From Bacteroidales bacterium (GTDB lineage Bacteria; Bacteroidota; Bacteroidia; Bacteroidales; UBA10428): a stretch of 64,000 nt of DNA. Each line of letters starts with the position of its first letter. The stretch's first letter is position 1. The stretch covers positions 8,849 to 72,848 of the forward strand of contig JBGSSF010000033.1 in assembly GCA_041737175.1 (NCBI GenBank). The letters are read 5' to 3'. Positions 3,528 through 20,182 of this stretch are shown piece after piece. Both the position numbers and the translations under genes were made by a program. The notes under the pieces were generated by a model. It saw nothing but the letters and a program-made list of their open reading frames with translations. It had not been told where the DNA came from and searched no databases.

Positions 3528-4118
3528 TTAGTTCACCCTGATTTCCTTGCTGCTAATATTGGCGTTATTCAGGAACTTTGTAACCGCGCCAAAATCACTG
3601 ACATTTACCTTACCCTTCAGTGAGGCTAAGGGAATCCCCTCGATGATCAGCACTTTGAAAGACATAAGCGTTGAAGGCGCAAAGGTGTCATTTACCCCTT
3701 CGAAGACTTCTTTATAGATCAGATCAATGCCGCCAACATAAGCATCAAAATCCATATAAATGAACAGCGCATCATCCACATAAGTATAGGGCAACAGGTT
3801 GAAACTTTTCGGTTCGGTTTCAATTAACCTGTATACCAGAACGGCTCCTTCATAATAAATATCATCCGTTATCTCCGGCACATCAAGCCAGGCCCTGTAT
3901 CCGGAGGCATCTCCCTCCCATTCGGTGGCTTCCACATCATAAATAACGGAGTAGGCATATGCGGTTCCGTCGGCACCATCAATACCGTCATATCCCTGCG
4001 GTCCCTGCGGTCCCATAGGGCCTTCGGGTCCGGAACACTGTACAAGCAGAATTGTCAAAAATGCAAAGGAAAAGATACGGATCAATCTTCCTGTCGATGG
4101 TTGTTTATTTGTTTTCAT
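3528..4118 (-). CDS. Lipoprotein with a short collagen-like Gly-X-Y tract, function unknown
   Basis: Signal peptide with lipobox (LLVQC), followed immediately by seven G-X-Y triplets (GPEGPMGPQGPQGYDGIDGADG). I do not recognise a family for the rest of the protein. Confidence 0.6.
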   Translation of the reverse strand: MKTNKQPSTGRLIRIFSFAFLTILLVQCSGPEGPMGPQGPQGYDGIDGADGTAYAYSVIYDVEATEWEGDASGYRAWLDVPEITDDIYYEGAVLVYRLIETEPKSFNLLPYTYVDDALFIYMDFDAYVGGIDLIYKEVFEGVNDTFAPSTLMSFKVLIIEGIPLASLKGKVNVSDFGAVTKFLNNANISSKEIRVN

Positions 4119-4496: not shown

Positions 4497-7400
4497 TTAC
4501 TTCAGTAGCTTAAATACCTGCAGCTCTCCGTTATTCACCGCAGTAACAATATACTTTTTACCGGATACTTCAACAGGTAGTATCCTCCGGCCGTCTCCTT
4601 TTGCGATATAACCGCTTTCCAAGGGCATCAGCGCGGTGTATTTATGATCTGCGCTGCCCAGCAGGCACCAGCCATAGCTGGCATCGTAGCGACCCAGCGA
4701 AGGCCTTACTGCATAATGGTTTCCGATAACGATCAGATCTGCAATGTTGTCGCGGTTGGCATCTTCAACCAATATGTGACGAACCGGGGAAAACTGGACC
4801 GGCGTGGGAAGTTTACTGATCGAAAATGCACCGTTGCCGTTATTGAGGAACACACAGCTTTCAAATAACACGGCTTTTTTTAATGTAGCTTGTTCCAGTA
4901 TATTTTTTCCGAAAATGTCCCTGGCCGTTTTGCCTCCGAAATCGGAATACCTGGGATAGTCTTTTTTCAGTACCGCCAACTGACCGGTCAGTTCATCCAG
5001 GGAAGCCACGGGATAACTGATGCCCTTCTCATAGGAGCAGATGATCTGATCCAGCGATCCGTTGTTGTCAAAGTCGTCGAGGTACATTTCAACGGGCTCC
5101 TTTACGGAAGCTTTCAGCATGGAGTTCAGTCCCAGGTTTCCCCCGACCATGTCCAAATCGCCGTCACGGTCCAGATCCGCCACTTCAATGCAATTCCACC
5201 AGCCTGAGGTTTCAGCCAGACCGGCAATGGCAGTAACGTCGGTGAAATACCCGTTGCTGTTACTGAAGATGGAAACCTTCATCCATTCACCCACCACCAC
5301 CAGATCAGGATCGCCGTCGTGGTCATAATCCATCCAGTTGGCATCAGTCACCATGCCGGCATTCCGGAGTCCTTTCATCCTTTGATCCGTCACATCTTTA
5401 AAATGTCCCCGTCCGTTATTCTCAAGCAGGTAAAGATCCGGGGGCCAGCCATAACCGCCGGGAACGGATCTGGAACCCAGGAACAGGTCAAGATCGCCGT
5501 CGTTGTCAAAATCACCCGGCCGCACACAGGATCCATTGTGGGAAATAAAAGGCAGGGATCCTTTTTCGCACGCGGCAAAACCTCCCTTGCCGTCATTGAT
5601 CAGCAACCTGTCAGCCAGCAAAGGATGGCCGATGAGTAACTCATTGCCTCCCCTTACGATATATAGATCGAGATCGCCATCCTGGTCAGCATCAAAAAAA
5701 GCAGCATCAGTATCTTCGGTATATTGGTCCAGAAGTAACACCGGCACTGGGACCGACCTGAAGCTTCCATTTTTATTCTGCACAAACAACTGTGCAGTCT
5801 GGCCTTTGGCCCCGCCCGTAAACAAATCATCCAACCCGTCGCCGTTTATATCTCCCACGGCCAATGCAGGTCCCTCCGTTGAAAGGCTGTGCGGGATCAG
5901 GTGTTCCCGGTCAAAATCCATGTAGGCATCTTCTTTGTGCCTGAACTCAAGTCCGGGTATTTGTGCAAACGAAAACAACTTAGGATTTTCACCGGTTTCA
6001 GGTGTTTTTGCAGGCCGGCTTGCATGGATCATTTCCAATACGAGGAACTGATCAGCCGCAACATCTTTCAGTATTTGTAAAGAATTGTCAGGCCAGCGCA
6101 CAATCAATGAATCAATGCTGCTCACGGATCCCAGGCCAAAGTGCAGCACATCGGAGGATGCAGACATAAAACCTCTTGTCACAAATTGCTCGGCCACCTG
6201 AATCTGCCCGTTGCTGTATAATGTTACACGCGCTCCGGTACCACGGGTGTTCAGTCCTTTCCCTTTGAATGCCACAGAAAGGAAATGATTACCTGTTTTC
6301 TCTACAGCATTATTCCTGTAGATGTAAGCCGTCTCGTTGATGTTGTTCGTTATAAGATCGAGGTCGCCGTCATTGTCCAGATCCGCATAGGCAGAACCGT
6401 TGGAATAGGAGCGGGTATTGAAGCCCCAGTCTTTGGCCTTATTGGTAAATGTCAGATCGCCGTTGTTTTTAAAGATAAAATTGATGTTCGGATACAGGGG
6501 CATCCTGGAATAAAGCACGCTGTCGGATAAATTGCTGTTATCCTTCCCGGGAAAATACCGGTTGCCGCCGGTAAGGAAATCGAGATAATCCAGGTCATTG
6601 GCCCTGCGGTAAATCCCGTTGGTGATAAAAAGGTCCTTCCACCCGTCATTGTCCACATCGCAAAACAAAGGCGACCAGCTCCAGTCGGTTGCATATACGC
6701 CCGACAACAGTCCGATTTCACTGAACATGCCTCCGCCCAGGTTCAGCTGCAGGTTATTCCGGGTAAACTGATGGTCATAGCCGTATTGTTTCTTGATCTG
6801 ATACAGCTCATAGTCGTCATCCGAGGCGGACTGCTTCCTGATTTTCTCCTCATCGGGCATCATGTCCAAAACAAATACATCCAGAAGACCATCGTTGTTA
6901 AAATCCCCGATGTCATTGCCCATGGAAGACCTGGTGGTATGCCCCATGGATTCAGTCAGGCGTTCAGAGAATGTTCCGTTCCCGTTGTTGATGTACAAAT
7001 AATCATTTTCATGAAAGTCATTGGAGATGTAGATATCGGGTAATCCGTCGTTGCTGACATCGCTGATGTTAATCCCCAGTCCGTAACCGATCTGGCTGCT
7101 GAAAATCCCTGCCTCCCGGGTGACATCCGTGAACACGCGTCGGCCCTCCGCCCCGTCATTCCGGAACAGGCGGTCGCCGGCCAGTTCATCGCGGTCCAGT
7201 CGCAGGGTATACATGCCATAGCTCCGGGAAGTATGCACCGAGTGGTTCAGCAGGTACATATCGAGGTCCCCGTCCGTGTCATAATCAAAAAAGGCTGCCT
7301 GGGTGGAGAATCCCTGGAAGTCAAGCCCGTAATCCTGCGCTTCGTCTTTAAAAGTCAGGTTTCCCTGGTTGATGAACAACTGGTTTCTTCCCTGTAAATT

Positions 7401-7814
7401 TTTGTAATTGCCAACCTGGCAAATATAGATGTCCAGGAATCCATCCCCATTCACGTCGGCCAGGGTGACACCGGTTTTCCAGGAGCCATGGCCTGCAACA
7501 CCGGCCTTGTCGGTGATATCCTCGAACCGGAGATTTCCCCTATTGAGGTATAATTTATTGGAATTTTGATTGGAGGTGAAATAAAGATCTGTCAGACCGT
7601 CGTTGTTGATGTCTCCGGCAGCAACACCTGCCCCGTTGTTGAAATAAAGGTATTTAATGATGTTGAATTCCTCAGTTTCGGTCAGCTGGTTGATGAAATC
7701 CACGCCCGTTATCTCAGCGGGAAGCAGGGAAAGCAGGAAGTCCTGTTCTTCCTTCCCCGGACTGCACGAAGAAAGCAGCATGGGCAACAACAGTATCAGC
7801 GCTGCATTTTTCAT
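4497..7814 (-). CDS. FG-GAP/VCBS-repeat + ASPIC/UnbV-domain lipoprotein (CRTAC1-like), paralogue 1
   Basis: Lipobox LLSSC. More than 10 FG-GAP calcium-loop motifs (DINNDGLTDLY, DVNGDGFLDIY, DYDTDGDLDMY, DLDNDGDLDLI ...). Central UnbV_ASPIC-type segment (GARVTLYSNGQIQVAEQ...VLHFGLG). 1105 aa. Confidence 0.85.
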   Translation of the reverse strand: MKNAALILLLPMLLSSCSPGKEEQDFLLSLLPAEITGVDFINQLTETEEFNIIKYLYFNNGAGVAAGDINNDGLTDLYFTSNQNSNKLYLNRGNLRFEDITDKAGVAGHGSWKTGVTLADVNGDGFLDIYICQVGNYKNLQGRNQLFINQGNLTFKDEAQDYGLDFQGFSTQAAFFDYDTDGDLDMYLLNHSVHTSRSYGMYTLRLDRDELAGDRLFRNDGAEGRRVFTDVTREAGIFSSQIGYGLGINISDVSNDGLPDIYISNDFHENDYLYINNGNGTFSERLTESMGHTTRSSMGNDIGDFNNDGLLDVFVLDMMPDEEKIRKQSASDDDYELYQIKKQYGYDHQFTRNNLQLNLGGGMFSEIGLLSGVYATDWSWSPLFCDVDNDGWKDLFITNGIYRRANDLDYLDFLTGGNRYFPGKDNSNLSDSVLYSRMPLYPNINFIFKNNGDLTFTNKAKDWGFNTRSYSNGSAYADLDNDGDLDLITNNINETAYIYRNNAVEKTGNHFLSVAFKGKGLNTRGTGARVTLYSNGQIQVAEQFVTRGFMSASSDVLHFGLGSVSSIDSLIVRWPDNSLQILKDVAADQFLVLEMIHASRPAKTPETGENPKLFSFAQIPGLEFRHKEDAYMDFDREHLIPHSLSTEGPALAVGDINGDGLDDLFTGGAKGQTAQLFVQNKNGSFRSVPVPVLLLDQYTEDTDAAFFDADQDGDLDLYIVRGGNELLIGHPLLADRLLINDGKGGFAACEKGSLPFISHNGSCVRPGDFDNDGDLDLFLGSRSVPGGYGWPPDLYLLENNGRGHFKDVTDQRMKGLRNAGMVTDANWMDYDHDGDPDLVVVGEWMKVSIFSNSNGYFTDVTAIAGLAETSGWWNCIEVADLDRDGDLDMVGGNLGLNSMLKASVKEPVEMYLDDFDNNGSLDQIICSYEKGISYPVASLDELTGQLAVLKKDYPRYSDFGGKTARDIFGKNILEQATLKKAVLFESCVFLNNGNGAFSISKLPTPVQFSPVRHILVEDANRDNIADLIVIGNHYAVRPSLGRYDASYGWCLLGSADHKYTALMPLESGYIAKGDGRRILPVEVSGKKYIVTAVNNGELQVFKLLK

Positions 7815-7823
7815 ACGATTGCC

Positions 7824-10800
7824 TCATCGGCCCGTTACTTTTAAAACCTGCAGGGCGTCGTTATTTCTGGCGATCAGCAGTATCTTTCCGGTTGGGGTGG
7901 TCACTTGCATGATATCACGGATCTCACCCCGAAGATAAATTCCAGATAATTTTGGCGGAACCAGGCTGAATTCACCTTGGCCGTTACCCAACAAAAGTGA
8001 TCCGTAACCAGCGTCGTATCGTCCCACCTCCGGTTTGACATTGTACAGATTACCCCCCAGCAATATGTCCGGTTTGCCATCACCGTTATAATCACTCACA
8101 TCTGCCGCATAAACCGGTGAGAACTGGACTTCTGCTGACAGTGATTTACGCGTAAATTGCCCTGTACCATCATTGATAAAGAGGGAAGTCTCCAGCATAG
8201 ATACCTCCAGGTGAACGGAATTCTTTAATTGTTCCGGTGTAAATACATCCGTAATCTGCTGGTCTTTGTATAGCTCATACTTGGGATATTTTTGCGCGAG
8301 TGCCGGGATCTGCCCCACCAGATCATGTTTTAAAACCAGCGGATAGGATTGGTCACCGTCATAGGTGCAAATGATCTGCTCCGCGCTGCCGTTCAGGTCA
8401 AAGTCATTGATGTACATACCTACCGGTTTTTCAGGAGAGGCCTTGAACCTGGAATTCAACCCGTGGTTCCCGGCAATGAAATCCATATCGCCATCAGAGT
8501 CGAAATCTCCGGCAGCCAGGCAATTCCACCAGCCCTCCGTTTTTTCGGATCCGAAGGCGTCCTTCTTTTCCGAAAAACGGTTATTCTCATTCAAAAAAAC
8601 TTTCAGGGGCATCCATTCGCCTGCCAGGATCATATCCTGGTCTCCGTCCCCGTCCACGTCTTCCCAGAGCATATCGCGGACCATGCCAACATCCTTCAAT
8701 TCAGGCGCAATCTGTTGGGTTACATTGGTGAATTTACCTTTTCCGTCATTCTCCAGAATGTAGGATGTGACAGGCACGCCATACAGGAAGGGCTTGAGCC
8801 GGATACCGACAAACAATTCCATCACACCGTCGTTGTCAAAATCCTGCGCGCGAACACAAGACGTGCTTTCATATTTCCCGGCCGGCAGGACCTGCTTTGA
8901 TTTCTCAAAATGTCCTTTACCGTTGTTCATATACAAACGATCGGCCAATGCTGAAGAACTCTCCGGAAATTCATTGCTTCCGCTGGCAACATACAAATCG
9001 TTATCACCGTCCCCGTCGGCATCAAAAAGAGCGCAATCCGTGTCTTCTGAAATCTTATCTTCTTCAAACAAAGATTTATCAACTGGTTCAAAAGTGCCAT
9101 TCCTGCGCTGTATCATCAGTTCACCGGGTTGTTCTTTGGCTCCGCCTATAAAAATATCATCCAGACCGTCTCCGTTCACATCCCCCCGGCACATGCGCGG
9201 TCCCTCGGTCGACATCATGTGATAGATCAGCTTATCGCGTTCGAAATCGTTGAAGTCATCCTCGCGATGGACGAACTTGATTCTGTTTTCGACGCTTATG
9301 TCTTTAAAATATTTATTTTCATAGGTTTTCTGTCCTGTTTTTGCCGGAGATGCTGCAACAGCATCTTTCTGATGCAGGGTTAAAACCTGGTTGGTTTCCA
9401 CATTCGTCAGCAGGGTGACCCTGTCATCGGGCCACACAACAACCAGGGAATCCACCATGGTCAGGGAGCCCAGGCCGGCATTGGGACGGGGATCCACGGT
9501 GGATAAATAACCCCGCATGGGCATTTGTTCGAGGTATATCAGTTTGCCTTTATGCCGGATGGTCACTTTGGCTCCGAGGGCATCGGTGTTTCCGGGTTCT
9601 CCCTTAAGTATCAGTTTCAGATAACGATTTTCCGGAAACTGCCGGCTGGTCTCATTGCGGTAAACAAACATGGGCATGTTGACATTATTTACCACAAGGT
9701 CCAGGTCCCCGTCATTATCCAGGTCCCCGTAGGCAGAACCATTGGAAAAGCTGGGCGTATCAAGTCCCCAGTCAGCCGCTGTATTTTCGAACCGGTAATC
9801 CCCCAGGTTTTTAAAAGCGTAACTCGGAATCTTCACCGAAGGAATAGCATCGATCAGGGTCTTGTAATCCACATTATTGCCGGATATCACGGACATGACC
9901 ATATCGCGGTTTGAAAAATACTGAATATAATCCTGGTCGGTGAGGTCCTTGTAAATGCCATTGGCCACAAAGAGATCTTTCAATCCGTCATTATCAAGAT
10001 CCATGATCAGCGCGCCCCACGACCAGTCGGTGGCATTAACGCCGGCAAATCTCCCGATCTCGCTGAAAGTGCCATCCGTATTGTTCAGCTGCAGCATATT
10101 GCGGGTGAACTGGTAATAGTAATCATTTTCCACATAGGCTTTATAGCCCTCCCAGTTATCAAAAGTCGTTTTTGTTTTCAGGCGGTCGTTGTGTTCAGGG
10201 ACCATGTCGGTGGCAAAGATCTCCGGATAATGATCGTTGTTGATATCCGCCATATCTGCACCCATGGAGGCAGCGGAAATCGATGGCATCATCGCGGTGA
10301 GGCATTCCCGGAAGGTTCCGTCATGGTTGTTGATATACAGGTAATCCCGTTCGAAAAAATCATTGGATACATAGATGTCCATCCATCCGTCCTGATCCAA
10401 ATCCCCGACGGTGACACCCAGTCCGAAACTGATCACGCTGCCATAAATGCCTGCTTCCAGGCTAACATCCGTAAATTTTCCGCCATCGTTGCGGAACAGA
10501 TTATCTCCACCGAGAGAATCTCTCACCATGCGCTGATTAACCTTCAGGTTAAAACTGCCGATGGCTTTGGAATAATTGTTCAGCAAATACAGGTCGAGGT
10601 CGCCGTCCTTGTCATAATCAAAGAAAACACCCTGCGTGGAATTCCCGGTACCACCAATGCCATATTTTTCCGCCTGTTCCGTAAAGGTCATGTCACCATT
10701 ATTGATATACAAATTATTCCGGTTGGCTTCACCGGGCAGGTTACCGGAATTACACACATAGATATCCGTCCATCCGTCTCCGTTCACATCGGCAAGGCTA

Positions 10801-11192
10801 ACGCCGGTCGACCATTCGCCTTTGCCACCAATGCCTGCACAGGCGGATATATCTTCGAATACAAAATTGCCTTTGTTCAGATACAGCACATCAGGGCCTG
10901 TGTTGGAAACCATGAACACATCGAGCAGGCTGTCGCGGTTCACATCACCCAGGGCCACGCCCCCGCCATTGTAAAAATTCCGAAAGGTGTAAATGTTGAA
11001 TTTTTTCTTGAGTTGTTCGTCGTAATCGAGGTGATTGACAAAATCAGCATGAGTAACGGATGCCGGCAAAAGGGTAAACAAAGTATTTACTGATTTTTCC
11101 TGGGACTGATCCCTGCACGCAGTAAAAGACAGGAGCAGGAAAAGATGCCCGGCCCAGGACAAAGCCCTGGCAGATGGAGTTATTTTCAACAT
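7824..11192 (-). CDS. FG-GAP/VCBS-repeat + ASPIC/UnbV-domain lipoprotein, paralogue 2
   Basis: Same architecture (DVNRDSLLDVF, DVNGDGWTDIY, DLDNDGDLDLV; GAKVTIRHKGKLIYLEQ...). I moved the start to the ATG at 11192 (MLKITPSARALSWAGHLFLLLSFTAC lipobox). The 11345 start in the ORF track would overlap the upstream lipoprotein gene by 150 nt. Confidence 0.85.
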   Translation of the reverse strand: MLKITPSARALSWAGHLFLLLSFTACRDQSQEKSVNTLFTLLPASVTHADFVNHLDYDEQLKKKFNIYTFRNFYNGGGVALGDVNRDSLLDVFMVSNTGPDVLYLNKGNFVFEDISACAGIGGKGEWSTGVSLADVNGDGWTDIYVCNSGNLPGEANRNNLYINNGDMTFTEQAEKYGIGGTGNSTQGVFFDYDKDGDLDLYLLNNYSKAIGSFNLKVNQRMVRDSLGGDNLFRNDGGKFTDVSLEAGIYGSVISFGLGVTVGDLDQDGWMDIYVSNDFFERDYLYINNHDGTFRECLTAMMPSISAASMGADMADINNDHYPEIFATDMVPEHNDRLKTKTTFDNWEGYKAYVENDYYYQFTRNMLQLNNTDGTFSEIGRFAGVNATDWSWGALIMDLDNDGLKDLFVANGIYKDLTDQDYIQYFSNRDMVMSVISGNNVDYKTLIDAIPSVKIPSYAFKNLGDYRFENTAADWGLDTPSFSNGSAYGDLDNDGDLDLVVNNVNMPMFVYRNETSRQFPENRYLKLILKGEPGNTDALGAKVTIRHKGKLIYLEQMPMRGYLSTVDPRPNAGLGSLTMVDSLVVVWPDDRVTLLTNVETNQVLTLHQKDAVAASPAKTGQKTYENKYFKDISVENRIKFVHREDDFNDFERDKLIYHMMSTEGPRMCRGDVNGDGLDDIFIGGAKEQPGELMIQRRNGTFEPVDKSLFEEDKISEDTDCALFDADGDGDNDLYVASGSNEFPESSSALADRLYMNNGKGHFEKSKQVLPAGKYESTSCVRAQDFDNDGVMELFVGIRLKPFLYGVPVTSYILENDGKGKFTNVTQQIAPELKDVGMVRDMLWEDVDGDGDQDMILAGEWMPLKVFLNENNRFSEKKDAFGSEKTEGWWNCLAAGDFDSDGDMDFIAGNHGLNSRFKASPEKPVGMYINDFDLNGSAEQIICTYDGDQSYPLVLKHDLVGQIPALAQKYPKYELYKDQQITDVFTPEQLKNSVHLEVSMLETSLFINDGTGQFTRKSLSAEVQFSPVYAADVSDYNGDGKPDILLGGNLYNVKPEVGRYDAGYGSLLLGNGQGEFSLVPPKLSGIYLRGEIRDIMQVTTPTGKILLIARNNDALQVLKVTGR

Positions 11193-11193
11193 G

Positions 11194-11823
11194 CTATTTA
11201 TTTTCGAGATCTTTGATGAAATCTTCCGGATCTGGAGGGGTGCCGGGAGCCTGACCGGCAATGTCTTTTTCCACGAGCATATCCGTAAAAATAGCCCAAA
11301 CATAAAGATCATTCTCTTTAAAAATTGTAATGCGGCGGTTGCCATTTAAAAGAACGTAAGCTATGCCTCTTTTGGGATGTTTGACTGCAATAAAACCCTT
11401 ACCATAGACTTTTTCATACCAGTTCAGCACATCTGCCTGAAGGCTATCCGAGGAAAGCGCTTTATTCCAGGGGGCCCATCCTTTATATACAAACTTGACG
11501 GGCATTTCATATATTTCTCCGTTCACAAATGACGGATAAAAGTTCATGGTGGCGGGATATTTCAACTCATTTCTTGTGGAATATTCCACAGTAGTATTGT
11601 TGGATCCCTGCTTGATCAGGCCCGTCTTGTTAAGCTTCCAGCAATGCGTATAAAAATCCTTGTCAGGCATACCGAAGTATATCCCCATAAAGAGGGAGTC
11701 ATATCTTTCACCGCCGGATAGTTCGCGCTTTAACCTGCGTTCATATTTTGCTTTAGGCGAACAACCTGTTAATGCAATACCCAAAACCAGGCAGGACATG
11801 AGCCAAAGAAACACTCTTTTCAT
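11194..11823 (-). CDS. Lipoprotein of unknown function embedded between the FG-GAP paralogues
   Basis: The ORF-track start at 11835 is a TTG. The ATG at 11823 gives a classic lipoprotein leader (MKRVFLWLMSCLVLGIALTGC). The stop lies 1 nt before the next gene's start codon. Confidence 0.6.
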   Translation of the reverse strand: MKRVFLWLMSCLVLGIALTGCSPKAKYERRLKRELSGGERYDSLFMGIYFGMPDKDFYTHCWKLNKTGLIKQGSNNTTVEYSTRNELKYPATMNFYPSFVNGEIYEMPVKFVYKGWAPWNKALSSDSLQADVLNWYEKVYGKGFIAVKHPKRGIAYVLLNGNRRITIFKENDLYVWAIFTDMLVEKDIAGQAPGTPPDPEDFIKDLENK

Positions 11824-11831
11824 ATATATTG

Positions 11832-14800
11832 TCAATATTTGTAAAACTGCAAATTATCATTATTTCTGGCAACTGCAATGATCCGTTGTCCATTTATTTT
11901 CAGAATTGACAGGTCACGGATTTCCCCTCTGGTAAGAAACCCCGATTTCACAGAGGAGGCAGTATGCCAGGTTCCTTTCTTAGTTCCGCGGATCAACATT
12001 CCGTAACTCGCATCATATATTCCGGTCTGGGGTTTCGCCCGGTACTGGTTCCCTCCAACAAGTATATCACATAAGCCGTCGTGATCAAAGTCGTCAACAG
12101 CCAGGGCATAGACCGGAGAGAATTGCGCTTCTGCAGGGAGAGGAGTTATTTGGAAAATCCCCTTGCCGGTATTCATCAAAACACAGCTCTCCATGAAACG
12201 AGCCTGTAAAACAACCGACCGCTGAATAATCTCATCCGGAAAAATATCACTGATGACAGCTTCCTTATAATCAGCATGTTTCTTGTATTTATTCTCCAGG
12301 GAAGGGATCTGTCTGACCAGGTCATCTTTAATGGCCACCGGGTATGATTTTTCACCGTTGAAGGTACAAATGATCTGCTCCACGCTTCCGTTCAGGTCAA
12401 AATCATTCACGTACATGGTGATAGGTTTTGTTTCTGTGGCTTTAAAAAAGGAATTCAATCCGTGGTTGCCCAGCACAAAGTCAACATTTCCGTCTCCGTT
12501 CAGGTCTCTGGCAATGATGGTATGCCACCAGCCTTCTGTATTTTTCAATCCGTAGTGATCGGATTCATCCGTGAAATTCCCGTTGTTATTGATAAAAACT
12601 TTTACCGGCATCCAGTCACCCACGATAACCATATCAGGGTCATTGTCGCTGTCGATATCAGCCCAGCTCATGCCGGTGATCATGCCGATTTCTTTCAATC
12701 CGGGTGCCCGGATGGAGGATACGTTGGTGAATTTACCCTTTCCGTCGTTTTCAAGCAGGTAGCCGTTTACAGGCAAACCATAGGCAAAGGGTCGGAGGCG
12801 AACGCCTACAAAAAGATCCATGTCACCGTCGCGGTCAAAATCTTCGGGTTGCACGCAGGAGGTACTTTCATAGCGTGTAACCGGCAACATCTGTTTCGAT
12901 TTGGAGAAATTTCCATTCCCGTCATTGATATACAGTCTGTCCAGCAAAGCTGATGAACTTGAAGGAAATTCATTTCCCCCGCTGGTTACATAGAGATCAG
13001 CGTCCTGATCACCATCTGCATCAAAAAAAGCACAGTCGGTATCCTCAGAGATCTTATCAGCTTCAAACAGGCCCATATTGGTTTTTTTGAAATTCCCCCG
13101 TTTGACCTGCACGAATAAAGCACCCGGCGAATCCTTGGCGCCGCATACGAACGCATCATCCAACCCATCGCCGTTCACATCTGCAGTGGCCATATGGGGA
13201 CCCTCGTTGGAAAGCATTTCGAAAAGCAGCCGGTCCCGTTCAAAATCCACGAATTCATTCTCTTGATGGGTAAATGCAAAGCCCCCGGGTGGTTCCTGTT
13301 TTTGAAAAACCGATGAAGGTTCCTTACCGGGCATGCCCGGAGGTTTCTGAACAGCTTCTTTCTGCTCCAGCGTCAGGAACTGATTTACCATTATTTTTCG
13401 CAAAACGGTTATACTGCCATCGGGCCATTCGGCAACCAGGGAATCGATGGATGCGGATCTGCCCAGACCAAAATGCAAACGGTTGTCAACGCAGGATTTA
13501 AAACCACGCATGGGTATGTTTTCCTGGTAATTCATTTGGCCATCAGAGTAAAGGGTGACACACGTGCCAATGGCAGCCGTATTTTTCCCGGTACCTTTCA
13601 GGGTAAGCATCAGAAAATTAGCTTCAGGATTTTCCCGGGTTTCATTCTGGTATACGAACGAGGGCATGTTCACATTATTCACAACCATATCTAGGTCCCC
13701 GTCGTTGTCCAGGTCCCCATAGGCAGCTCCATTCGAAAAAGATGGGGTACCCAGGCCCCAGGATGCTGATAAATTGGTGAAGGTCAGATCGTGGTTGTTA
13801 TGAAAGGCATAATTGGGAACGGGCTCCGAAGGGATCATATCAATGACCTTTATGATCGCCTGTTCCTCGGTCCTGATCATATTCCGCATGGCGGCCGGAT
13901 TCGAATAAAAATCAAGGTAATCGCGGTCCAGCAGATCTTTAAAAATGCCATTGGCGACAAAAATGTCCTTCCATCCGTCGTTGTCAAGGTCCATGATCAG
14001 GGCTCCCCAGCTCCAGTCGGTTGTACTGACGCCGCTCAATCTTCCTATTTCACTGAAATGGTTGTTGCACTTGTTCAGTTGCAGCACGTTCCGGGCAAAC
14101 TGCCGGTAATACCCGTTATTCAGTTTCATCTGGTATCTTTCCCAGTCCTCAAACAAAGCTTTTGTTTTCATCCTGGAATTTCCTTCCGGGGTCATTTCCG
14201 TAGCGAAGATCTCCGGCCACGCATCGTTGTTGATATCTGCAATATCAGCTCCCATGGCTCCCAGGCTGATCTCGCGCAGCTGTTCCTCCAGTTGTTCGGA
14301 GAAAGTGCCATTCCTGTTGTTCATATACAGGTAATCGCGTTCAAAAAAATCGTTCGATACATAGATATCCGGCCAGCCATCCCGGTTCAGATCTCCCACA
14401 CTCACACCCAGACCAAAACCGATTTTACTGCCATAGATGCCCGCCTCCTGGCTGACATCTTTAAAATGGCCCCCGTCATTTCTGTACAATTTATTGGCTC
14501 CCAGGCTGTCTCGTAACTGTCGCTGATCCGGTTTGATGTCAAATTCAGTGACGGATTGAAAAGAGTTATTTAACAGGTAGCAATCGAGGTCCCCATCCCG
14601 GTCATAGTCAAAAAATGAAGCGTGATTTGAAAGGCCGAGTACGTCGAGTCCATATTCTGCGGCCTTTTCGGTGAATGTCAGGTCTCCATTGTTGATGAAT
14701 AATTCATTCTGCCGGTGGGTTTCGCCCGGGATACCGGATTTGCAGACATAGATATCCAGCCAGCCATCCCCGTTAATATCCGCAATGCTCACCCCGGTCG

Positions 14801-15170
14801 ACCACACGTCCCTGCACTCCACGCCGGCTTTTTTTGTAATATCCTCAAAAACAAAATTCCCCATGTTCAGGTAAAGCTTGTTGTCAACCAGGTTACCGCA
14901 AAAGTAAATATCGGGCAGGCCATCGTTGTTGAAATCGCCAAGACCGACACCTGCTCCGTTGTAAAAATTCCGGTAAGTGTAAGTATTGTATTCTTCGGTG
15001 AATTCTACCTGATTAACAAAGTCAATATGGGTGCGCTTTGCATCGAGGAGGGTAAACAGAGGATCATATGACTCACCGGGATGTTTGTCACCGCATGCAT
15101 AAAAAGACAGGGCTGTCAGAAGTGACAGTCCTGCCAATGCACCACTATTTCTCCGACTGATCAAACGCAT
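11832..15170 (-). CDS. FG-GAP/VCBS-repeat + ASPIC/UnbV-domain lipoprotein, paralogue 3
   Basis: Lipobox LSFYAC. FG-GAP loops (DFNNDGLPDIY, DINGDGWLDIY, DYDRDGDLDCY, DLDNDGDLDMV). UnbV_ASPIC-like segment (GTCVTLYSDGQMNYQE...RLHFGLG). Collinear with paralogues 1 and 2 over its full length. Confidence 0.85.
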   Translation of the reverse strand: MRLISRRNSGALAGLSLLTALSFYACGDKHPGESYDPLFTLLDAKRTHIDFVNQVEFTEEYNTYTYRNFYNGAGVGLGDFNNDGLPDIYFCGNLVDNKLYLNMGNFVFEDITKKAGVECRDVWSTGVSIADINGDGWLDIYVCKSGIPGETHRQNELFINNGDLTFTEKAAEYGLDVLGLSNHASFFDYDRDGDLDCYLLNNSFQSVTEFDIKPDQRQLRDSLGANKLYRNDGGHFKDVSQEAGIYGSKIGFGLGVSVGDLNRDGWPDIYVSNDFFERDYLYMNNRNGTFSEQLEEQLREISLGAMGADIADINNDAWPEIFATEMTPEGNSRMKTKALFEDWERYQMKLNNGYYRQFARNVLQLNKCNNHFSEIGRLSGVSTTDWSWGALIMDLDNDGWKDIFVANGIFKDLLDRDYLDFYSNPAAMRNMIRTEEQAIIKVIDMIPSEPVPNYAFHNNHDLTFTNLSASWGLGTPSFSNGAAYGDLDNDGDLDMVVNNVNMPSFVYQNETRENPEANFLMLTLKGTGKNTAAIGTCVTLYSDGQMNYQENIPMRGFKSCVDNRLHFGLGRSASIDSLVAEWPDGSITVLRKIMVNQFLTLEQKEAVQKPPGMPGKEPSSVFQKQEPPGGFAFTHQENEFVDFERDRLLFEMLSNEGPHMATADVNGDGLDDAFVCGAKDSPGALFVQVKRGNFKKTNMGLFEADKISEDTDCAFFDADGDQDADLYVTSGGNEFPSSSSALLDRLYINDGNGNFSKSKQMLPVTRYESTSCVQPEDFDRDGDMDLFVGVRLRPFAYGLPVNGYLLENDGKGKFTNVSSIRAPGLKEIGMITGMSWADIDSDNDPDMVIVGDWMPVKVFINNNGNFTDESDHYGLKNTEGWWHTIIARDLNGDGNVDFVLGNHGLNSFFKATETKPITMYVNDFDLNGSVEQIICTFNGEKSYPVAIKDDLVRQIPSLENKYKKHADYKEAVISDIFPDEIIQRSVVLQARFMESCVLMNTGKGIFQITPLPAEAQFSPVYALAVDDFDHDGLCDILVGGNQYRAKPQTGIYDASYGMLIRGTKKGTWHTASSVKSGFLTRGEIRDLSILKINGQRIIAVARNNDNLQFYKY

Positions 15171-15185
15171 TGCAGTTAAAAAGAA

Positions 15186-15212
15186 AGCAGGTAAAATTAA
15201 TAATTACCTGCT
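15186..15212 (-). terminator. Intra-operon hairpin between susD-like and the first FG-GAP gene (attenuator or partial terminator)
   Basis: Perfect 9-bp stem AGCAGGTAA/TTACCTGCT with a 9-nt loop. On the transcribed (minus) strand it is followed by TTTCTTTTT, 15 nt before the ATG at 15170. Confidence 0.4.
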
Positions 15213-15240
15213 CTCCTGAAGAACAATTTATGTTTTAGAA

Positions 15241-16929
15241 TTAGTAACCCGGATTTTGGATAAGGTTCGGGTTAGCGGATAATTTATCCCTGTTGATCGG
15301 GAATATTTTGAGATAATCGTCGCTTTTCAGCACATCGCCGGGATTATTAAAAGGAAGTGTCCATTTGGCATTGTCATCCCAAAATCCCCAGCGGATCAGA
15401 TCCTGTCTACGGTTATGTTCGGCAAACATTTCACGGCCCAGTTCATTGAATAATTCACCACCCGGAACGTCTCCCCCCGTGATGTCAAAACTTACCGGAC
15501 CATCCAGGGACGTCAGGTCAGCTAAACCGGCACGATCGCGGATATCGTTAACCAGCAAAAGGGCAGCAGCGTCTGTTGCACTAGCGCTCACTCTCCAGAG
15601 TGCTTCGGCTTTCATCAGCAGCACATCGGCATAGCGGAATACGGAAAAGTCATTGCTCAAGTTGGGTGTAGCACCGTTAGCAAATTCCCACTTACCGATC
15701 CTAATGCCGGATTGCCGCCAGGATTGAGGGCCAAGTTCATTGATCTGCGGCTGACCCGAATACAGGTTTCCGAAATTAAGAGGAGCGCCGTCCGGATCAC
15801 CTGCATCTGCTGAGCCATCCTGAACAATAACACCGCCTGAGGTGTATTGATAACCGGCCAGGAAATTACCCCGTCTTCCTGCAGGTGCGTCAACCGTACC
15901 GGCATCGCCCTTGCGCAAATCGCCGTCTTCATAAGAGTTGTAAAACTCCTCGAGTGAGCAGAAACCGTTCCAGGGTTGTGCTGTCAGGTCATAGGTAAAC
16001 TGGCTGCCATAGTGCAGGGTCTGCATGGGAAGGTTGAATCCCTGGAAGAAAACTTCGTCATACGGTATGGCAAAGATGAATTCCTTGGAACCGGCATTAT
16101 CCGTGTTGAAGTTGGTAAAGTAATTGTTTTCGAGAGAATACTTACCGGAATTTATTATCTCATCACAGGCTGTGATCACTTTGTTCCACTGTGGTGTACC
16201 GACATAAACCCCTGAATTCAGGTATATTTTGGCCAACAGGGTCATTCCGGCGTAATAATTCATACGTCCATAGGTCGTACCGTCCACTGCTTTTGACAGC
16301 AAAGGCACTGATTCTTCCAGTTCAGCTACAAGGAAATCATAAATTTCCTGCCGTGTTTTTGTCGGTGGTGTAGGATCTGCATTGGCAAAATCGGTAACGA
16401 GAGGCACATTGCCATACAGGTCAACCAGTTGCCAGTAGAAGAAACCACGTAAGGTACGGAGTTCTGCCACATAGGCAGCAGCAATGGCAGGGTCAATCTG
16501 ACCATTATCAGCCAAGGTTTCGAACTGAAAAATCAGCTGATTGGCTGTAGTCACCCCACTGAAGCAGAAGTCCCATGCGCCACCCGTTGCGCCATCTTCG
16601 AATTTCCAGGAATGCAGGTGAAGCCTTCTCCAGTTACCTCCGTCATCCCAGTCGGAACCCCTGGTGGGAACAACCATCTCATCGGTAGTGGTTTCCTGCA
16701 GATTGTTTATATCGCCTGAAGCATAACCTCCAAGCTGTGTATAGGCATTTCCCAAAGCAGCGATGAACTCTTCATCGGTTTTGAAGAAATTGTCAGGTGT
16801 TACCTCACTGTACAGCTCTTCGTCCAGGTTGGTACATGACTGGTTCACAGGCATCACCAATAAAACGGTTATAAAGGCTGTGATCAGAAGGAATGTTTTT
16901 TTCATTTTATTTCTTGCTATTGTTTTCAT
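15241..16929 (-). CDS. SusD/RagB-family outer-membrane nutrient-binding lipoprotein
   Basis: The 16971 start in the ORF track is a TTG. ATGs at 16929 or 16905 give the leader MKKTFLLITAFITVLLVMPVNQSC (lipobox). Conserved RYADVLLMKAEALW and the C-terminal NPNLIQNPGY typical of SusD homologues. Sits directly downstream of a SusC gene. Confidence 0.9.
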   Translation of the reverse strand: MKTIARNKMKKTFLLITAFITVLLVMPVNQSCTNLDEELYSEVTPDNFFKTDEEFIAALGNAYTQLGGYASGDINNLQETTTDEMVVPTRGSDWDDGGNWRRLHLHSWKFEDGATGGAWDFCFSGVTTANQLIFQFETLADNGQIDPAIAAAYVAELRTLRGFFYWQLVDLYGNVPLVTDFANADPTPPTKTRQEIYDFLVAELEESVPLLSKAVDGTTYGRMNYYAGMTLLAKIYLNSGVYVGTPQWNKVITACDEIINSGKYSLENNYFTNFNTDNAGSKEFIFAIPYDEVFFQGFNLPMQTLHYGSQFTYDLTAQPWNGFCSLEEFYNSYEDGDLRKGDAGTVDAPAGRRGNFLAGYQYTSGGVIVQDGSADAGDPDGAPLNFGNLYSGQPQINELGPQSWRQSGIRIGKWEFANGATPNLSNDFSVFRYADVLLMKAEALWRVSASATDAAALLLVNDIRDRAGLADLTSLDGPVSFDITGGDVPGGELFNELGREMFAEHNRRQDLIRWGFWDDNAKWTLPFNNPGDVLKSDDYLKIFPINRDKLSANPNLIQNPGY

Positions 16930-16948
16930 GACATTTTCGTTTTCAGGA

Positions 16949-19900
16949 TTAAAAAACAATGTTTGCACCAAAGGTTACCGATCTGGTCCTGAACCAGGTA
17001 TTCCTTCTGTCGACACCCGGTAAGAGCGGATTCTCAAAGGTCCCTAAATCCCTGTCACCATCTACATATCTCGGGTTTGGATCTACCCCTTTGTACTTGG
17101 TAATATAGAATAAATTGTTACCGGCAAGGTAAAGCCGGATCCTGTTTACCTTCCAGCTTGATGGTACCTTAAAAGTGTAACCTAAGCTGGCATTATCCAG
17201 AGAAACAAAGGATGCGTTTTCAATATGATAATCGGATAACAGATTTGTGGTATTCTTCATTAAGATACCGGTTTCACTGTTTCTCAGGTCCTTGGCGGTG
17301 GTAGGAAGATTATAGGCCGAAATCAAGGCCGGCACTTCATAAAAACCGCGGAAAGAATTGAGGAGGTCATGCCCGAATATTCCACGGAAGAATACATTAA
17401 GGTCCCAATTCTTATAGGTAACGGTGTTGCCAAATCCCATGATGAATTTCGGTAAGCCGTTTCCGATAATAACCCGGTCGGCCTGGTCAACACCTGCACT
17501 TGTGCCGGGTTGATCCACCATAACCAGATCACCGTCAGCATCAACTTCTTTGAATTCCAGTCCCAATAACTGACCGATGGGTTCACCTTCTTCAACCCTA
17601 ACAAGAGGAGTCTGATTCTGACCTGGAGATCCCATATCGCCCAGGTCTTTTACCCCGTATTTCAACTCGGCGCCATTGAATTCTCCTGAAAGAGAAACCA
17701 GCGTATTTTCAAGGGTGTAGGAAGGAGTAAGGCTAAAGGTATAGGAAAGATCGGATTTTTTAACAACATTATAATTAAGTGTCAGTTCCAACCCGCTGCT
17801 CTTTATTTCTCCGATGTTCACCCATGCCGTATTGAAAAGGTTCGGAGGTTTGGGTACTTCAAAATTGAAAATAAGGTCGGTTGTGGTTCTGGTGTAAAAG
17901 TCAAACGATCCATACAACCTGGATTGAAACATCGAAAAGTCAAAACCGGCATCGAATTCACCTTTTCTTTCCCACTTCAGATCGGGATTGGCGTTGCTGG
18001 TGAAACCGTAACTCGGGAGGAATACACCATTGTAGAAGAAGTTATTGCTTTGGGCGCCCAGGCGCAGCAATGACAAATAGCTATCCCTGGGTTCGGCACC
18101 TGTTACACCGTAATTTACCCTTACTTTTAGGTTGTCAATAGCGCTGACATTCAAGAATTTGGCTAGTTCAACACCACCACCAATAGACGGGAACAGACCC
18201 CATTTGTTGTTGGCCCCGAATTTGGAAGAGCCTTCATAACGGGCGCTGGCGCTTAAAAAGTAAGTTTCATCATAATTCAGGTTAATACGTCCGAAGAATG
18301 CGATCAGCTTGTTCGAATTTTTATAACTGGTTATAGTACCCAGGCCATTTTTAAAATCGAGAGCAGCCTCGAGATCATTATAAGTGAATTTGTCATTGAT
18401 AAAATCACCACCCTCGGCCCTGAAACCTTCATTTGTAAAATCCTGGTAGGAATACCCGGCCAAAGCAGTTACATTTAAAGCGGAAGCAACAGTGCCGGTC
18501 CAGCGGCCCGTCATTTCAAAAAGCTGATTGTTGGAATTGTTCTCGGATCTGGAAGCAAGACCATTCCTGCCGTAACCCGATAAATAATCGAATTTGCTGT
18601 TGTACACTCCATTTAGGCCCGAGTAACTCTGCCTGGAATAAAAAGCGTCAACAACAAAACCGTTGAAAATTTCATAGGCGCCCTTCAGGGACAGGTTCAA
18701 CAGGCTGTTTTTCCCTTCGTTGGTATTCTGTTTAAGAATGGCAACAGGATTGTAGTAATCGAATTGCTCCTGCTGATAATACCCGGCATACTTGCTGTAT
18801 AACGGATTAGCTTCGTCAAAAAATACAGGCGCTGTTGGGTTGTAAATTGAGGCATATCGGAACGACTGGTCAAATCCGTATTCGGCTTTCCTTTCTGTAG
18901 CCCCTACGTTAACATCAATGGTTAGTTTGTCATTGAATGCCTTTTGGGTAAAATTGATCCTGCCGCTGAACTGGGTATTTCCTGTGGTAATCATAATACC
19001 ATCGGCATTGCGGTAGTTGATGGATGCCCGGTAATTGGACTTCTCCGATCCACCCGACAGAGAAATATTGTGCACCTGGGATATGGCCGTTTGTTCAATT
19101 TCCTCGAACCAATCGGTGTCAGATCCGAAGTCATTTGCAATGGGTGCCCCCAATTGTTCAGATACTTCCTGGCGCAAAGATCTCCATTCTGAAGCATTCA
19201 TTACATCTGTATTCTTGGCAACAAACTCGGCGGTGACATATCCGTTGTATTCGATCTGGGTTGTACCTGCCCTGCCTTTCTTGGTGGTAACAAGGATTAC
19301 ACCACTGGAGCCTCTTGTTCCGTAAATGGCAGCGCCGGAACCATCCTTTAAAACGCTGATGTTCTCAATATCGTTCGGATCTACATTGTCGAGATTACCT
19401 CCAACAACACCATCAATTACAACCAGCGGTCCAAGATTGGCACCAATGGTGCTCAACCCTCTTAAGCGGATGTCATAAGATCCGTTCGGGTTACCTCCGG
19501 GCCTGCTGATAGCCAACCCGGATACCTTACCCTGGATCAGCTGAACAGGACTATTCACATTACCTTTGTTAAAATCACTCGATTTAACGCTGGCAACAGA
19601 ACTGGTGGTCTCATTTTTTCTCTGGGTTCCATACCCGATGACAACAATTTCACCCAATGCCGTTGAAGAGGATGCGAGCACCACGTCGATCGTTGACTGG
19701 TCGCCAACAGTAACCGACTGACTGGTATAACTCACATAAGAAAAAACAAGAACAGTTTGAGGTCCGGGCACTGTAAGGCTGTAATTACCGTCAGCATCGG
19801 TCACTGTACCCTGCAGTGTTCCCTGGACAACGACGTTGACTCCGGGGAGAGGTCCTTCCTCTTCAGAAGTGACCTTACCTTTAACGGTTCTTTCCTGAGC

Positions 19901-19987
19901 GCTGGCTATGCCGACGGCAAAGCCGAATAAGAGAAGAGTAAGCAAACTCCCCCTTAAAAAGAATGCAGAATTCCGCATGGTTCCCAT
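16949..19987 (-). CDS. SusC/RagA-family TonB-dependent outer-membrane transporter
   Basis: Signal peptide, CarboxypepD_reg-like domain (KGKVTSEEEGPLPGVNVVVQGTLQGTVTDADGNYSL), plug region (VVIGYGTQRK, ISVLKDGSGAAIYGTRGSSGVILVTTKKG), and a long beta-barrel ending ...VTFGANIVF. Confidence 0.92.
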   Translation of the reverse strand: MGTMRNSAFFLRGSLLTLLLFGFAVGIASAQERTVKGKVTSEEEGPLPGVNVVVQGTLQGTVTDADGNYSLTVPGPQTVLVFSYVSYTSQSVTVGDQSTIDVVLASSSTALGEIVVIGYGTQRKNETTSSVASVKSSDFNKGNVNSPVQLIQGKVSGLAISRPGGNPNGSYDIRLRGLSTIGANLGPLVVIDGVVGGNLDNVDPNDIENISVLKDGSGAAIYGTRGSSGVILVTTKKGRAGTTQIEYNGYVTAEFVAKNTDVMNASEWRSLRQEVSEQLGAPIANDFGSDTDWFEEIEQTAISQVHNISLSGGSEKSNYRASINYRNADGIMITTGNTQFSGRINFTQKAFNDKLTIDVNVGATERKAEYGFDQSFRYASIYNPTAPVFFDEANPLYSKYAGYYQQEQFDYYNPVAILKQNTNEGKNSLLNLSLKGAYEIFNGFVVDAFYSRQSYSGLNGVYNSKFDYLSGYGRNGLASRSENNSNNQLFEMTGRWTGTVASALNVTALAGYSYQDFTNEGFRAEGGDFINDKFTYNDLEAALDFKNGLGTITSYKNSNKLIAFFGRINLNYDETYFLSASARYEGSSKFGANNKWGLFPSIGGGVELAKFLNVSAIDNLKVRVNYGVTGAEPRDSYLSLLRLGAQSNNFFYNGVFLPSYGFTSNANPDLKWERKGEFDAGFDFSMFQSRLYGSFDFYTRTTTDLIFNFEVPKPPNLFNTAWVNIGEIKSSGLELTLNYNVVKKSDLSYTFSLTPSYTLENTLVSLSGEFNGAELKYGVKDLGDMGSPGQNQTPLVRVEEGEPIGQLLGLEFKEVDADGDLVMVDQPGTSAGVDQADRVIIGNGLPKFIMGFGNTVTYKNWDLNVFFRGIFGHDLLNSFRGFYEVPALISAYNLPTTAKDLRNSETGILMKNTTNLLSDYHIENASFVSLDNASLGYTFKVPSSWKVNRIRLYLAGNNLFYITKYKGVDPNPRYVDGDRDLGTFENPLLPGVDRRNTWFRTRSVTFGANIVF

Positions 19988-20146: not shown

Positions 20147-20182
20147 GCAAACGATTCCGCAAACGTTTGCGGAATCGTTTGC
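20147..20182. promoter_or_regulatory. 36-bp perfect palindrome, candidate LacI-family operator in the susC/lacI divergent region
   Basis: GCAAACGATTCCGCAAAC|GTTTGCGGAATCGTTTGC is an exact reverse complement. The central GCAAACGTTTGC has the CG-centred AAnCGnTT core typical of LacI/GalR operators. It lies 58 nt upstream of the lacI-type ATG and 160 nt upstream of the susC ATG. Confidence 0.6.

Follow-up and report, generated by a model that had tools for sequence, protein, structure and literature searches.

The 64,000-nucleotide stretch analysed here (the window), which comes from a Bacteroidales bacterium (NCBI GenBank assembly GCA_041737175.1, contig JBGSSF010000033.1, positions 8,849 to 72,848 of the forward strand), holds a genuine six-gene operon in which the genes of a SusC-type transporter and its SusD partner (together SusCD) are accompanied by three paralogous propeller lipoproteins as the main cargo (F1, F2 and F3, collectively the F proteins) and by a small lipoprotein (sm), an arrangement that the open reading frames (ORFs) and their translations confirm. 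The module recurs across at least six bacterial phyla, and its carriers inhabit soil, sediment, freshwater and the sea, among Bacteroidota as well as neighbouring phyla. We consider it about an even chance that the locus is a self-contained, widely conserved carbohydrate-uptake module whose propellers serve as surface capture components and are possibly catalytic. The relevance of such a module is stressed by the fact that the prediction of polysaccharide utilization loci (PULs) reads the substrate from carbohydrate-active enzymes (CAZymes), of which the module has none, in hundreds of species. Its function, once solved, would also give a role to the CRTAC1/ASPIC-UnbV fold, for which, to our knowledge, no biochemical role has been assigned in bacteria, in enediyne biosynthesis or in mammals, and it could reveal a new class of surface enzyme or else a novel partner of SusCD in ligand capture. 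The operon consists of the following elements, in the order of transcription:

16949-19987, minus strand: susC, SusC/RagA-type TonB-dependent transporter of 1012 amino acids (aa); TIGR04056 and Pfam CarbopepD_reg_2, Plug and TonB_dep_Rec_b-barrel
15241-16905, minus strand: susD, SusD-family lipoprotein of 554 aa from MKKTF, lipobox NQSC; Pfam SusD_RagB, SusD-like_3 and SusD-like_2
15174-15215, minus strand: terminator-like hairpin with T-run in the gap after susD, arms 15183-15194 and 15204-15215, -20 kcal/mol
11832-15170, minus strand: F3 (paralogue 3), A-type FG-GAP/UnbV_ASPIC lipoprotein, putative double propeller, of 1112 aa, lipobox FYAC; FG-GAP_3 at E 3.5e-78, UnbV_ASPIC at residues 533-600
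11194-11823, minus strand: sm, small lipoprotein of 209 aa from MKRV, lipobox LTGC, basic residues after the Cys
7824-11192, minus strand: F2 (paralogue 2), A-type FG-GAP/UnbV_ASPIC lipoprotein, putative double propeller, of 1122 aa from MLKIT, lipobox FTAC; FG-GAP_3 at E 1.6e-85, and UnbV_ASPIC
4497-7814, minus strand: F1 (paralogue 1), B-type FG-GAP/UnbV_ASPIC lipoprotein, putative double propeller, of 1105 aa, lipobox LSSC; FG-GAP_3 at E 3.9e-79, UnbV_ASPIC at residues 526-591

An earlier note on this DNA had read a single minus-strand operon in exactly this order, with a hairpin after susD and with gaps of 8, 1 and 9 nt between F3 and sm, sm and F2, and F2 and F1, respectively; the order, the hairpin and the three gaps are all re-found, and 70 nt separate susD from F3, which takes the first slot after susD in the conserved order. 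The small lipoprotein that the note had given as 213 aa is indeed a lipoprotein, whereas its length is now 209 aa. Two mechanical ORFs were shortened: that of susD (15241-16971) to its likely start, and that of F2 (7824-11345), whose 51 extra codons upstream overlap sm, to the start at 11192, in agreement with the gene calls of public assemblies. Lipoboxes can be read from the translations of SusD and, as had been claimed, of all four cargo proteins.

SusC scores 695 bits against TIGR04056 (cut-off 368, E 2.5e-208); the best NCBIfam match of SusD is the starch SusD model, with a score below the cut-off, and its closest solved chains are SusD homologues that include Bacteroides thetaiotaomicron SusD (3ck7). 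The locus therefore has the adjacent susC, of the SusC/RagA subfamily, and susD of a PUL, a lipoprotein gene directly 3' of susD, as expected of a surface glycan-binding protein (SGBP), and a regulator beside it in the form of a divergent LacI gene with a unique palindrome, but the operon lacks the co-localised substrate-defining CAZymes in Pfam and NCBIfam scans. No glycoside hydrolase (GH), polysaccharide lyase (PL), carbohydrate esterase (CE), sulfatase or peptidase family was detected by these scans in any operon protein, as the earlier reading of motifs had anticipated, and NCBIfam offers no named family for the cargo proteins. We would class the locus as Sus-like, with a cargo that is uncharacterised and unusually conserved.

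The strongest evidence that the operon is a unit of its own comes from its recurrence. A scan of one genome per species yielded at least 582 confirmed relatives, and 80 loci were kept for gene-order analysis, in which ORFs were called and then labelled by phmmer against the window proteins; they represent Bacteroidales, Cytophagales, Chitinophagales/Saprospiraceae/Sphingobacteriales, Balneolales, Ignavibacteria-like 'Chlorobiota', Calditrichota, Marinimicrobia and Gemmatimonadota. A SusD gene lies directly upstream of an F gene, or one gene from it, in 46 of the 80 loci, and SusC or SusD is found somewhere in the fragment in 63; as SusD genes make up only a small part of the genes of any genome, chance falls far short of explaining such adjacency. 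Two or more F genes occur in 65 loci and three or more in 36, while F3-sm-F2 is seen in 22 and the exact order SusC-SusD-F3-sm-F2-F1 in 14, many of the loci without the full order being short contigs. The full order recurs in Bacteroidales, Cytophagales, Chitinophagales and Balneolales, and reduced forms are present in Gemmatimonadota and Calditrichota. The earlier note had asked whether SusCD-FG-GAP/ASPIC synteny recurs without CAZymes; it does, and the operon is supported as a dedicated system, no classical CAZyme being consistently adjacent in the 80 loci.

These data bear directly on the possibility that the window copy is a PUL truncated by the loss of its CAZymes. Relatives 87% identical to it have one extra gene, a second SusC after F1, that the window lacks, and GH65, GH31, GH32, GH37 or GH13 are found near a few distant loci; however, the same CAZyme-free core is the rule in the 80 loci, no CAZyme family is common to more than 5 of them, and no CAZyme remnant lies between the genes, whose gaps measure 1-9 nt. 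The synteny survey contradicts truncation, which we regard as extremely improbable.

The identities of the orthologues to the window proteins are as follows:

Bacteroidales: SusC 59-73%, SusD 62-73%, sm 59-65%, F proteins 65-75%
Cytophagales and Balneolales: SusC 37-47%, SusD 38-45%, sm 36-45%, F proteins 46-60%
Gemmatimonadota and Calditrichota: SusC 30-34%, SusD 30-36%, sm not detected, F proteins 47-50%

The F proteins are the most conserved parts, above SusC and SusD: F2 and its orthologues share 71-75% identity within Bacteroidales and 52-60% with Cytophagales, and SusC orthologues outside Bacteroidales are 29-47% identical overall. Orthology between loci extends to every member, SusC, SusD, sm and the F proteins; SusD travels with the module, which on these comparisons co-evolves as one unit. 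Bit scores further split the F proteins into a B type, which is F1-like, and an A type, which is F2/F3-like, in every phylum, Gemmatimonadota and Calditrichota included; A and B are two ancient types, and the split between F2 and F3 is a later one. Both types are present in 50 of the 53 loci that have at least two full-length F genes, a figure in which the A-type neighbour is the informative part, since loci were ranked by F1 similarity, which in part guarantees that a B type is there. From this pairing across loci it follows that the minimal conserved core is SusC-SusD-A-(sm)-B. The small lipoprotein has no Pfam or NCBIfam match, and its 1396 homologues in the database are all unnamed; it adjoins F genes in 34 related loci, canonically between two A-type genes. 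Its AlphaFold 2 model has a predicted local distance difference test (pLDDT) score of 73, and its best fold matches in the Protein Data Bank (PDB) reach a template-modelling (TM) score of at most 0.25. An ORF of about 166 aa between F genes in Gemmatimonadota was considered as a divergent sm and found to be unrelated (hhalign probability 0.1).

The three large proteins are members of the CRTAC1/ASPIC-UnbV family, with FG-GAP_3, FG-GAP and UnbV_ASPIC above their cut-offs in F1, F2 and F3 alike. Pfam places FG-GAP_3 in 9-10 stretches of each protein (E 1e-78 to 1e-85) and a single UnbV_ASPIC domain in the centre (E 1e-17 to 1e-21). They are, as the earlier note had it, paralogues of about 1100 aa, with pairwise identities of 44-56% (56% between F2 and F3), and its count of more than 10 calcium loops around a central ASPIC module is matched by the 11-12 copies of the strict motif D-x-[DN]-x-[DN]-G in each. 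With a relaxed loop pattern the count for F1 is 14, seven before and seven after the ASPIC module, for which reason F1 can be taken as two seven-bladed propellers, and we read the F proteins in general as containing two seven-bladed Ca2+-loop propellers. The AlphaFold 2 model of F1 (mean pLDDT 76) has all-beta repeats flanking a beta-sandwich at about residues 510-595. The best match by far of this model in a Foldseek search of the PDB is murine CRTAC1 (9etn, E 4.5e-27, target-normalised TM 0.73 over 636 columns), which spans the N-terminal half of F1 only and is also recognised from sequence (phmmer E 1.4e-15, profile E 6e-19). The other top-50 matches are generic multi-propeller proteins such as DDB1 and SF3b130, and sequence and profile searches of all PDB chains with the F proteins returned CRTAC1, weak integrin alpha matches and nothing else. 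From the CRTAC1 fold and from profile matches confined to CRTAC1 and integrin we conclude that each F protein combines a CRTAC1-like unit with a second FG-GAP propeller, and CRTAC1 is their sole specific structural relative. With CRTAC1 and the enediyne UnbV/E4 proteins they share an FG-GAP Ca2+-loop propeller followed by a UnbV_ASPIC beta-sandwich; they differ in the putative second seven-bladed propeller (about 615-1105), in being lipoproteins and in forming A/B pairs in SusCD operons. At E < 1e-10, F1 has over 8000 relatives in the database; the best 120 are all at least 68% identical to it and carry the names 'VCBS repeat-containing', 'CRTAC1 family' or 'enediyne biosynthesis protein E4'.

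The idea of the earlier note that the propellers may resemble propeller-type lyases found no support in the fold and profile searches, and CRTAC1, the one specific relative, is non-enzymatic. PL11, PL22, PL24, PL25 and PL42 gave no profile match at E <= 1 against all PDB sequences and none in the Foldseek top 50, and lyase membership is unsupported by single-sequence, C-terminal-half and profile PDB searches as well as by Foldseek with the whole model. What the F proteins have in common with these families, of which PL11 is Ca2+-dependent, and with GH74, which has two propellers, is a beta-propeller architecture; GH74 stands at rank 28 of the Foldseek list with a TM score of 0.20-0.27. The same data speak to a broader proposal, namely that the F proteins are new Ca2+-dependent surface enzymes (a lyase, hydrolase or phosphoesterase) that cut a chemically uniform polymer before its import by SusCD, the A and B types performing different steps or forming a heteromer. 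It would account well for proteins that are more conserved than SusC and SusD across phyla, with 157 positions at least 95% invariant over 153 sequences, many of those outside the Ca2+ loops being polar or aromatic (for instance NDFxExDYLYxNN, TDWSW and HxE), and for an operon without any other candidate endo-enzyme; moreover, Ca2+ propellers are catalytic in PL11 lyases, beta-propeller phytases and paraoxonases. We nonetheless consider it unlikely, because neither sequence nor profile connects the F proteins to a solved lyase or hydrolase, because the Foldseek top 50 comprises CRTAC1 and generic multi-propellers with GH74 at a low score, and because we know of no catalytic motif in FG-GAP/ASPIC proteins. 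The invariant residues not belonging to the Ca2+ loops include E269, D271, Y272, K327, Q349, N353, D377, W378, W380, H626 and E628, and some of the invariant polar and aromatic positions fall within conserved segments (51-60, 401-410 and 631-640, for example) for which the AlphaFold model is poor.

CRTAC1 and integrin alpha are proteins of the extracellular matrix or of adhesion, and lone F1-type genes without SusCD do occur (L003/L005 and Chondrinema), both of which would be in line with F proteins that are integrin-like adhesins or surface matrix proteins sharing an operon with SusCD but taking no part in uptake. This alternative is, in our opinion, highly unlikely, given that the linkage to SusCD in 46 of 80 loci is far above chance, that a dedicated orthologous SusC/SusD lineage co-evolves with the F genes, and that the neighbourhood is catabolic.

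Part of the case for carbohydrate uptake lies in the regulation of the operon, where two features stand beside susC:

20240-21280, plus strand: LacI-family regulator, divergent from susC; Pfam LacI helix-turn-helix (HTH) PF00356 and Peripla_BP_1/3/4 (PF00532/PF13377)
20147-20182, no strand assigned: putative LacI operator, perfect 36-nt palindrome with core CCGCAAACGTTTGCGG, the exact core being unique in the window

The regulator has the N-terminal HTH and the periplasmic-binding-protein-like effector domain of its family, scores below the cut-off of every NCBIfam equivalog, and lies beside a palindromic operator with a central CG. The core sequence CGCAAACGTTTGCG is present in exactly one copy in the 64-kb window, and a search of the window for a wider LacI regulon found no operator copy other than this palindrome. 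In the relative that is 87-89% identical to the window locus (L085, GCA_040961665.1) a LacI orthologue (89%) occupies the same place, and the central 16 bp of the site, CCGCAAACGTTTGCGG, are kept while the outer arms have drifted. Independently, in a distant lineage, Hydrotalea flava (L078, Chitinophagales) has a LacI gene, 31% identical, that diverges from the orthologous susC, and the intergenic region between them contains the same 12-bp core, GCAAACGTTTGC, beside a second, half-matching site. Judging from these sequences, the dedicated LacI control that had been proposed earlier is well supported in the window; it is recurrent but not universal, since no LacI gene was found at the module in the other Bacteroidales carriers inspected (L086-L089, four long contigs picked for length alone), and one unclassified Bacteroidota locus (L081) has a NUDIX/AraR-like sugar regulator.

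A second, more widespread regulatory element may be the hairpin after susD. A strong stem-loop with a T-run is found at the SusD-F junction in almost every locus having one, Gemmatimonadota and Calditrichota included, and its stems are of unrelated sequence in different lineages and yet keep the same position. That position and shape are kept while sequence is not argues for a functional element, probably one of partial termination or transcript processing that would set SusCD above the cargo, and its conservation suggests a regulated read-through between susCD and the cargo genes.

The neighbouring genes of the related loci were surveyed by clustering the unlabelled ORFs and scanning representatives, together with all 116 same-strand contiguous partners. 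No neighbour family is common to more than about one tenth of the 80 loci, and none is universal; those that recur are:

PAP2-type (haloperoxidase homologue): 8 partners at E <= 1e-5; 13 of 80 loci by phmmer
non-SusC TonB receptor with DUF4249: 6
GH65: 4-5
3keto-disac_hyd: 5
GMC oxidoreductase: 4

GlpK, GlpD and MIP lie near the module in several Cytophagales, whereas GH31 (between the F genes of a Calditrichota locus), GH37, GH32 and GH13 are each restricted to single lineages. Taken together, the accessory genes suggest small glucosides or alpha-glucosides as a candidate substrate. The hint of a deoxy-sugar that the earlier note drew from flanking deoxy-hexose genes had to be abandoned as a general clue, as only the 87% relative has the AKR/ADH/Amidohydro_2 genes beside the module, and they are missing from this position in all 80 species-level loci.

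Among the accessory genes, those of redox-based glycoside breakdown are of particular interest. All four of the long Bacteroidales contigs (L086-L089) have, upstream and divergent, a PF06439 '3-keto-disaccharide hydrolase' and a GFO/IDH/MocA oxidoreductase of about 498 aa, and, downstream and convergent, a ketohexokinase (Khk), a PF01182 (Glucosamine_iso-family) protein and a second GFO/IDH/MocA protein; the one whose flank reaches far adds PF06439 and a major facilitator superfamily (MFS) transporter further downstream. The GFO/IDH/MocA protein carries a twin-arginine (TAT) signal and the PF06439 proteins Sec or lipoprotein signals. In two Chitinophagaceae-type loci (L054 and L073) a GMC oxidoreductase and a PF06439 protein are inserted between the A and B genes, and the lone F1 copies of Bacteroidales stand back to back with SusCD, PF06439 and GFO. 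Oxidoreductases combined with 3-keto-glycoside enzymes, such as glucoside 3-dehydrogenase with 3-keto-disaccharide hydrolase, or GFO/IDH/MocA-based systems, cleave glycosides without classical hydrolases, and a SusCD operon devoid of CAZymes would thereby be explained. The likeness to these oxidative pathways consists in TAT GFO/IDH/MocA or GMC oxidoreductases that, with PF06439, lie beside or within the module in Bacteroidales, Chitinophagaceae and Balneolales; on the other hand, such genes are not found beside the window operon, and it is only by neighbourhood that they are tied to the F proteins. The module offers a test of whether SusCD import routinely couples to redox-based, hydrolase-independent glycoside breakdown.

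A different partner is found in Cytophagales. The PAP2-type protein of about 450 aa is a close homologue of the vanadium iodoperoxidase Zg-VIPO1 of Zobellia galactanivorans (4cit, E 1e-148), has a lipobox, and keeps in the alignment the motifs WDEKxRSxLIRPET, PEYTSGHS and ISRxYGGIHY, which we take to be the vanadate site of the iodoperoxidase. Its gene follows the last F gene in many Cytophagales (L047:13291-14649; also L080, L026, L064, L079, L037, L057, L032, L063 and L074); it overlaps the F1 stop by 4 nt in Marinoscillum and stands together with a GMC oxidoreductase after F1 in L057. When the search was started from the haloperoxidase, the gene was found directly after an F gene in two of three genomes: Imperialibacter roseus (L090) has the order F-sm-F-F-haloperoxidase, and Chondrinema litorale (L091) a single F gene followed by the haloperoxidase, with no SusCD nearby; in the third, the haloperoxidase keeps company with a TonB receptor, DUF4249, a trehalase, GlpK/GlpD and GH13, without an F gene. 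No haloperoxidase was found in the window or in the Bacteroidales loci. Arenibacter C-21 depends on glucose, O2 and Ca2+ for its uptake of iodine, a process in which a glucose oxidase and a haloperoxidase have been proposed to take part (PMC5064120); a connection of that uptake with the association of haloperoxidase and F genes is speculative.

It is in this light that one may ask whether the module serves a non-carbohydrate ligand or an oxidative chemistry (iodine or another halide, halogenated or phenolic organics, or a metal), the propellers being Ca2+-dependent binders and the haloperoxidase their associate in aerobes. The presence of the iodoperoxidase homologue in 13 of 80 loci, its overlap with F1 in Marinoscillum, its position directly after an F gene once even without SusCD nearby, its pairing with a GMC oxidoreductase in L057 and the requirements of Arenibacter C-21 are what could be expected if this were so. 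However, the window and all Bacteroidales loci keep the core without a haloperoxidase, the regulators are of sugar type (LacI, NUDIX/AraR-like) and the accessory genes are mostly those of sugar or glycerol catabolism, and we find this alternative quite improbable. A proposal that joins both kinds of neighbour is that SusC-SusD-A-sm-B is an unrecognised, phylum-spanning system in which an obligate CRTAC1-like pair works as a Ca2+-dependent capture or catalytic machine feeding redox glycoside catabolism, coupled in aerobic Cytophagales to a vanadium haloperoxidase. We put it forward tentatively, as something rather doubtful; if true, it would give the ASPIC/UnbV fold of mammalian CRTAC1 and enediyne E4 its first biochemical role. 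Either way the question can be approached directly in culturable carriers, namely Imperialibacter roseus, Hydrotalea flava, Fodinibius, Algoriphagus, Pontibacter, Emticicia and Aquirufa.

Returning to carbohydrate uptake with the propellers as capture components, we favour a capture or scaffold role because of the binding-protein fold class of the F proteins, their lipoprotein nature, their position after susD and the sugar-type regulators and neighbours, and we allow for a catalytic or obligate-complex role because they are better conserved than SusC and SusD and have many invariant polar and aromatic positions away from the Ca2+ loops. Surface location, a binding role, complex formation, a carbohydrate ligand and the repression of the operon by LacI are all inferred. 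The A-type proteins F3 and F2, the B-type protein F1 and sm would act together at the outer membrane, where each F protein would present an N-terminal seven-bladed Ca2+-loop propeller, an ASPIC beta-sandwich and a second seven-bladed propeller; together with sm they would capture the ligand and pass it to SusCD, much as SGBPs do in Sus-like 'utilisomes'. The post-susD hairpin would hold the SusCD message above that of the cargo, and LacI on the GCAAACGTTTGC palindrome would keep the operon repressed as long as no small sugar-like effector is present. The imported molecule would then be cleaved without classical glycoside hydrolases from the operon, and in most Bacteroidales relatives the periplasmic processing might be redox-based and hydrolase-independent (TAT GFO/IDH/MocA, the 3-keto-disaccharide-hydrolase family, MFS and ketohexokinase).

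Two kinds of known system resemble this scheme. With Sus-like PULs and 'utilisomes' the locus shares adjacent susC and susD, lipoprotein genes 3' of susD, a post-susD hairpin, a dedicated regulator and catabolic neighbours, but the window operon is without a classical CAZyme, its cargo is a pair or triplet of CRTAC1-like proteins of about 1100 aa, read as double propellers and more conserved than SusCD, its regulator is of the LacI type instead of a hybrid two-component sensor or an extracytoplasmic function (ECF)/anti-sigma pair, and the module spans several phyla. In the BtuG-BtuB and XusB-XusA systems of Bacteroides a beta-propeller surface lipoprotein captures cofactors or siderophores for a TonB-dependent transporter, and there, too, the gene of the propeller lipoprotein lies beside that of the transporter; the likeness drawn here is one of architecture, and those systems have no SusD and single small propellers, whereas the context in the window is sugar catabolic.

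Several observations weigh against the carbohydrate-uptake scheme as it stands. SGBPs are normally the least conserved parts of a PUL; the F proteins, in contrast, are the most conserved, as would rather be expected of enzymes or of subunits of an obligate complex. Behind the lipobox Cys, the F proteins have only moderately acidic residues and sm has basic ones, so that export to the surface is not assured. The accessory genes vary by lineage, and the window operon itself lacks the GFO/3keto-disac_hyd flank, the sole GFO genes lying some 30 kb away in another LacI cluster. A simple model of sugar uptake does not explain the haloperoxidase association of Cytophagales. Finally, full-text searches, in which few subscription journals were covered, retrieved no paper tying UnbV/ASPIC, FG-GAP, VCBS or CRTAC1-family proteins to SusC, SusD, PULs or TonB transport.

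Some further features were noted in and around the operon. One may be a trailing member of it:

3528-4118, minus strand: candidate trailing member, lipoprotein of 196 aa, lipobox LVQC, collagen-like G-x-y stretch GPEGPMGPQGPQGYDGIDGADG; no family match

This lipoprotein trails the module in the 87% relative too. A second SusC paralogue directly follows F1 in several Bacteroidales relatives (L001:13331-16204 and L085:17340-20213; also L006, L038, L044, L046 and L066); that of L001 is 62% identical to the window SusC and has no annotated N-terminal CarboxypepD_reg domain, and a search of the window for a second SusC paralogue, or a remnant of one, found none. In L088 and L089, which are long-read metagenome contigs, susC, susD and the F genes are split into many short called genes, and these splits look like assembly frameshifts and not true pseudogenes. 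Elsewhere in the window, a separate PUL, immediately upstream of the operon and its LacI gene, occupies 21307-33245 on the minus strand, with a Reg_prop + GerE regulator, two PF10091 proteins, a Laminin_G_3 protein, SusD and SusC; PF10091 presumably corresponds to GH144, endo-beta-1,2-glucanase, and in the 87% relative a GH144 gene directly abuts the LacI gene. On the plus strand, positions 43135-52032 hold a cluster that starts with a second LacI-family regulator and further encodes an SDR, a Lar_N-like protein, an MFS sugar transporter, UxaC (glucuronate isomerase) and two GFO/IDH/MocA proteins.

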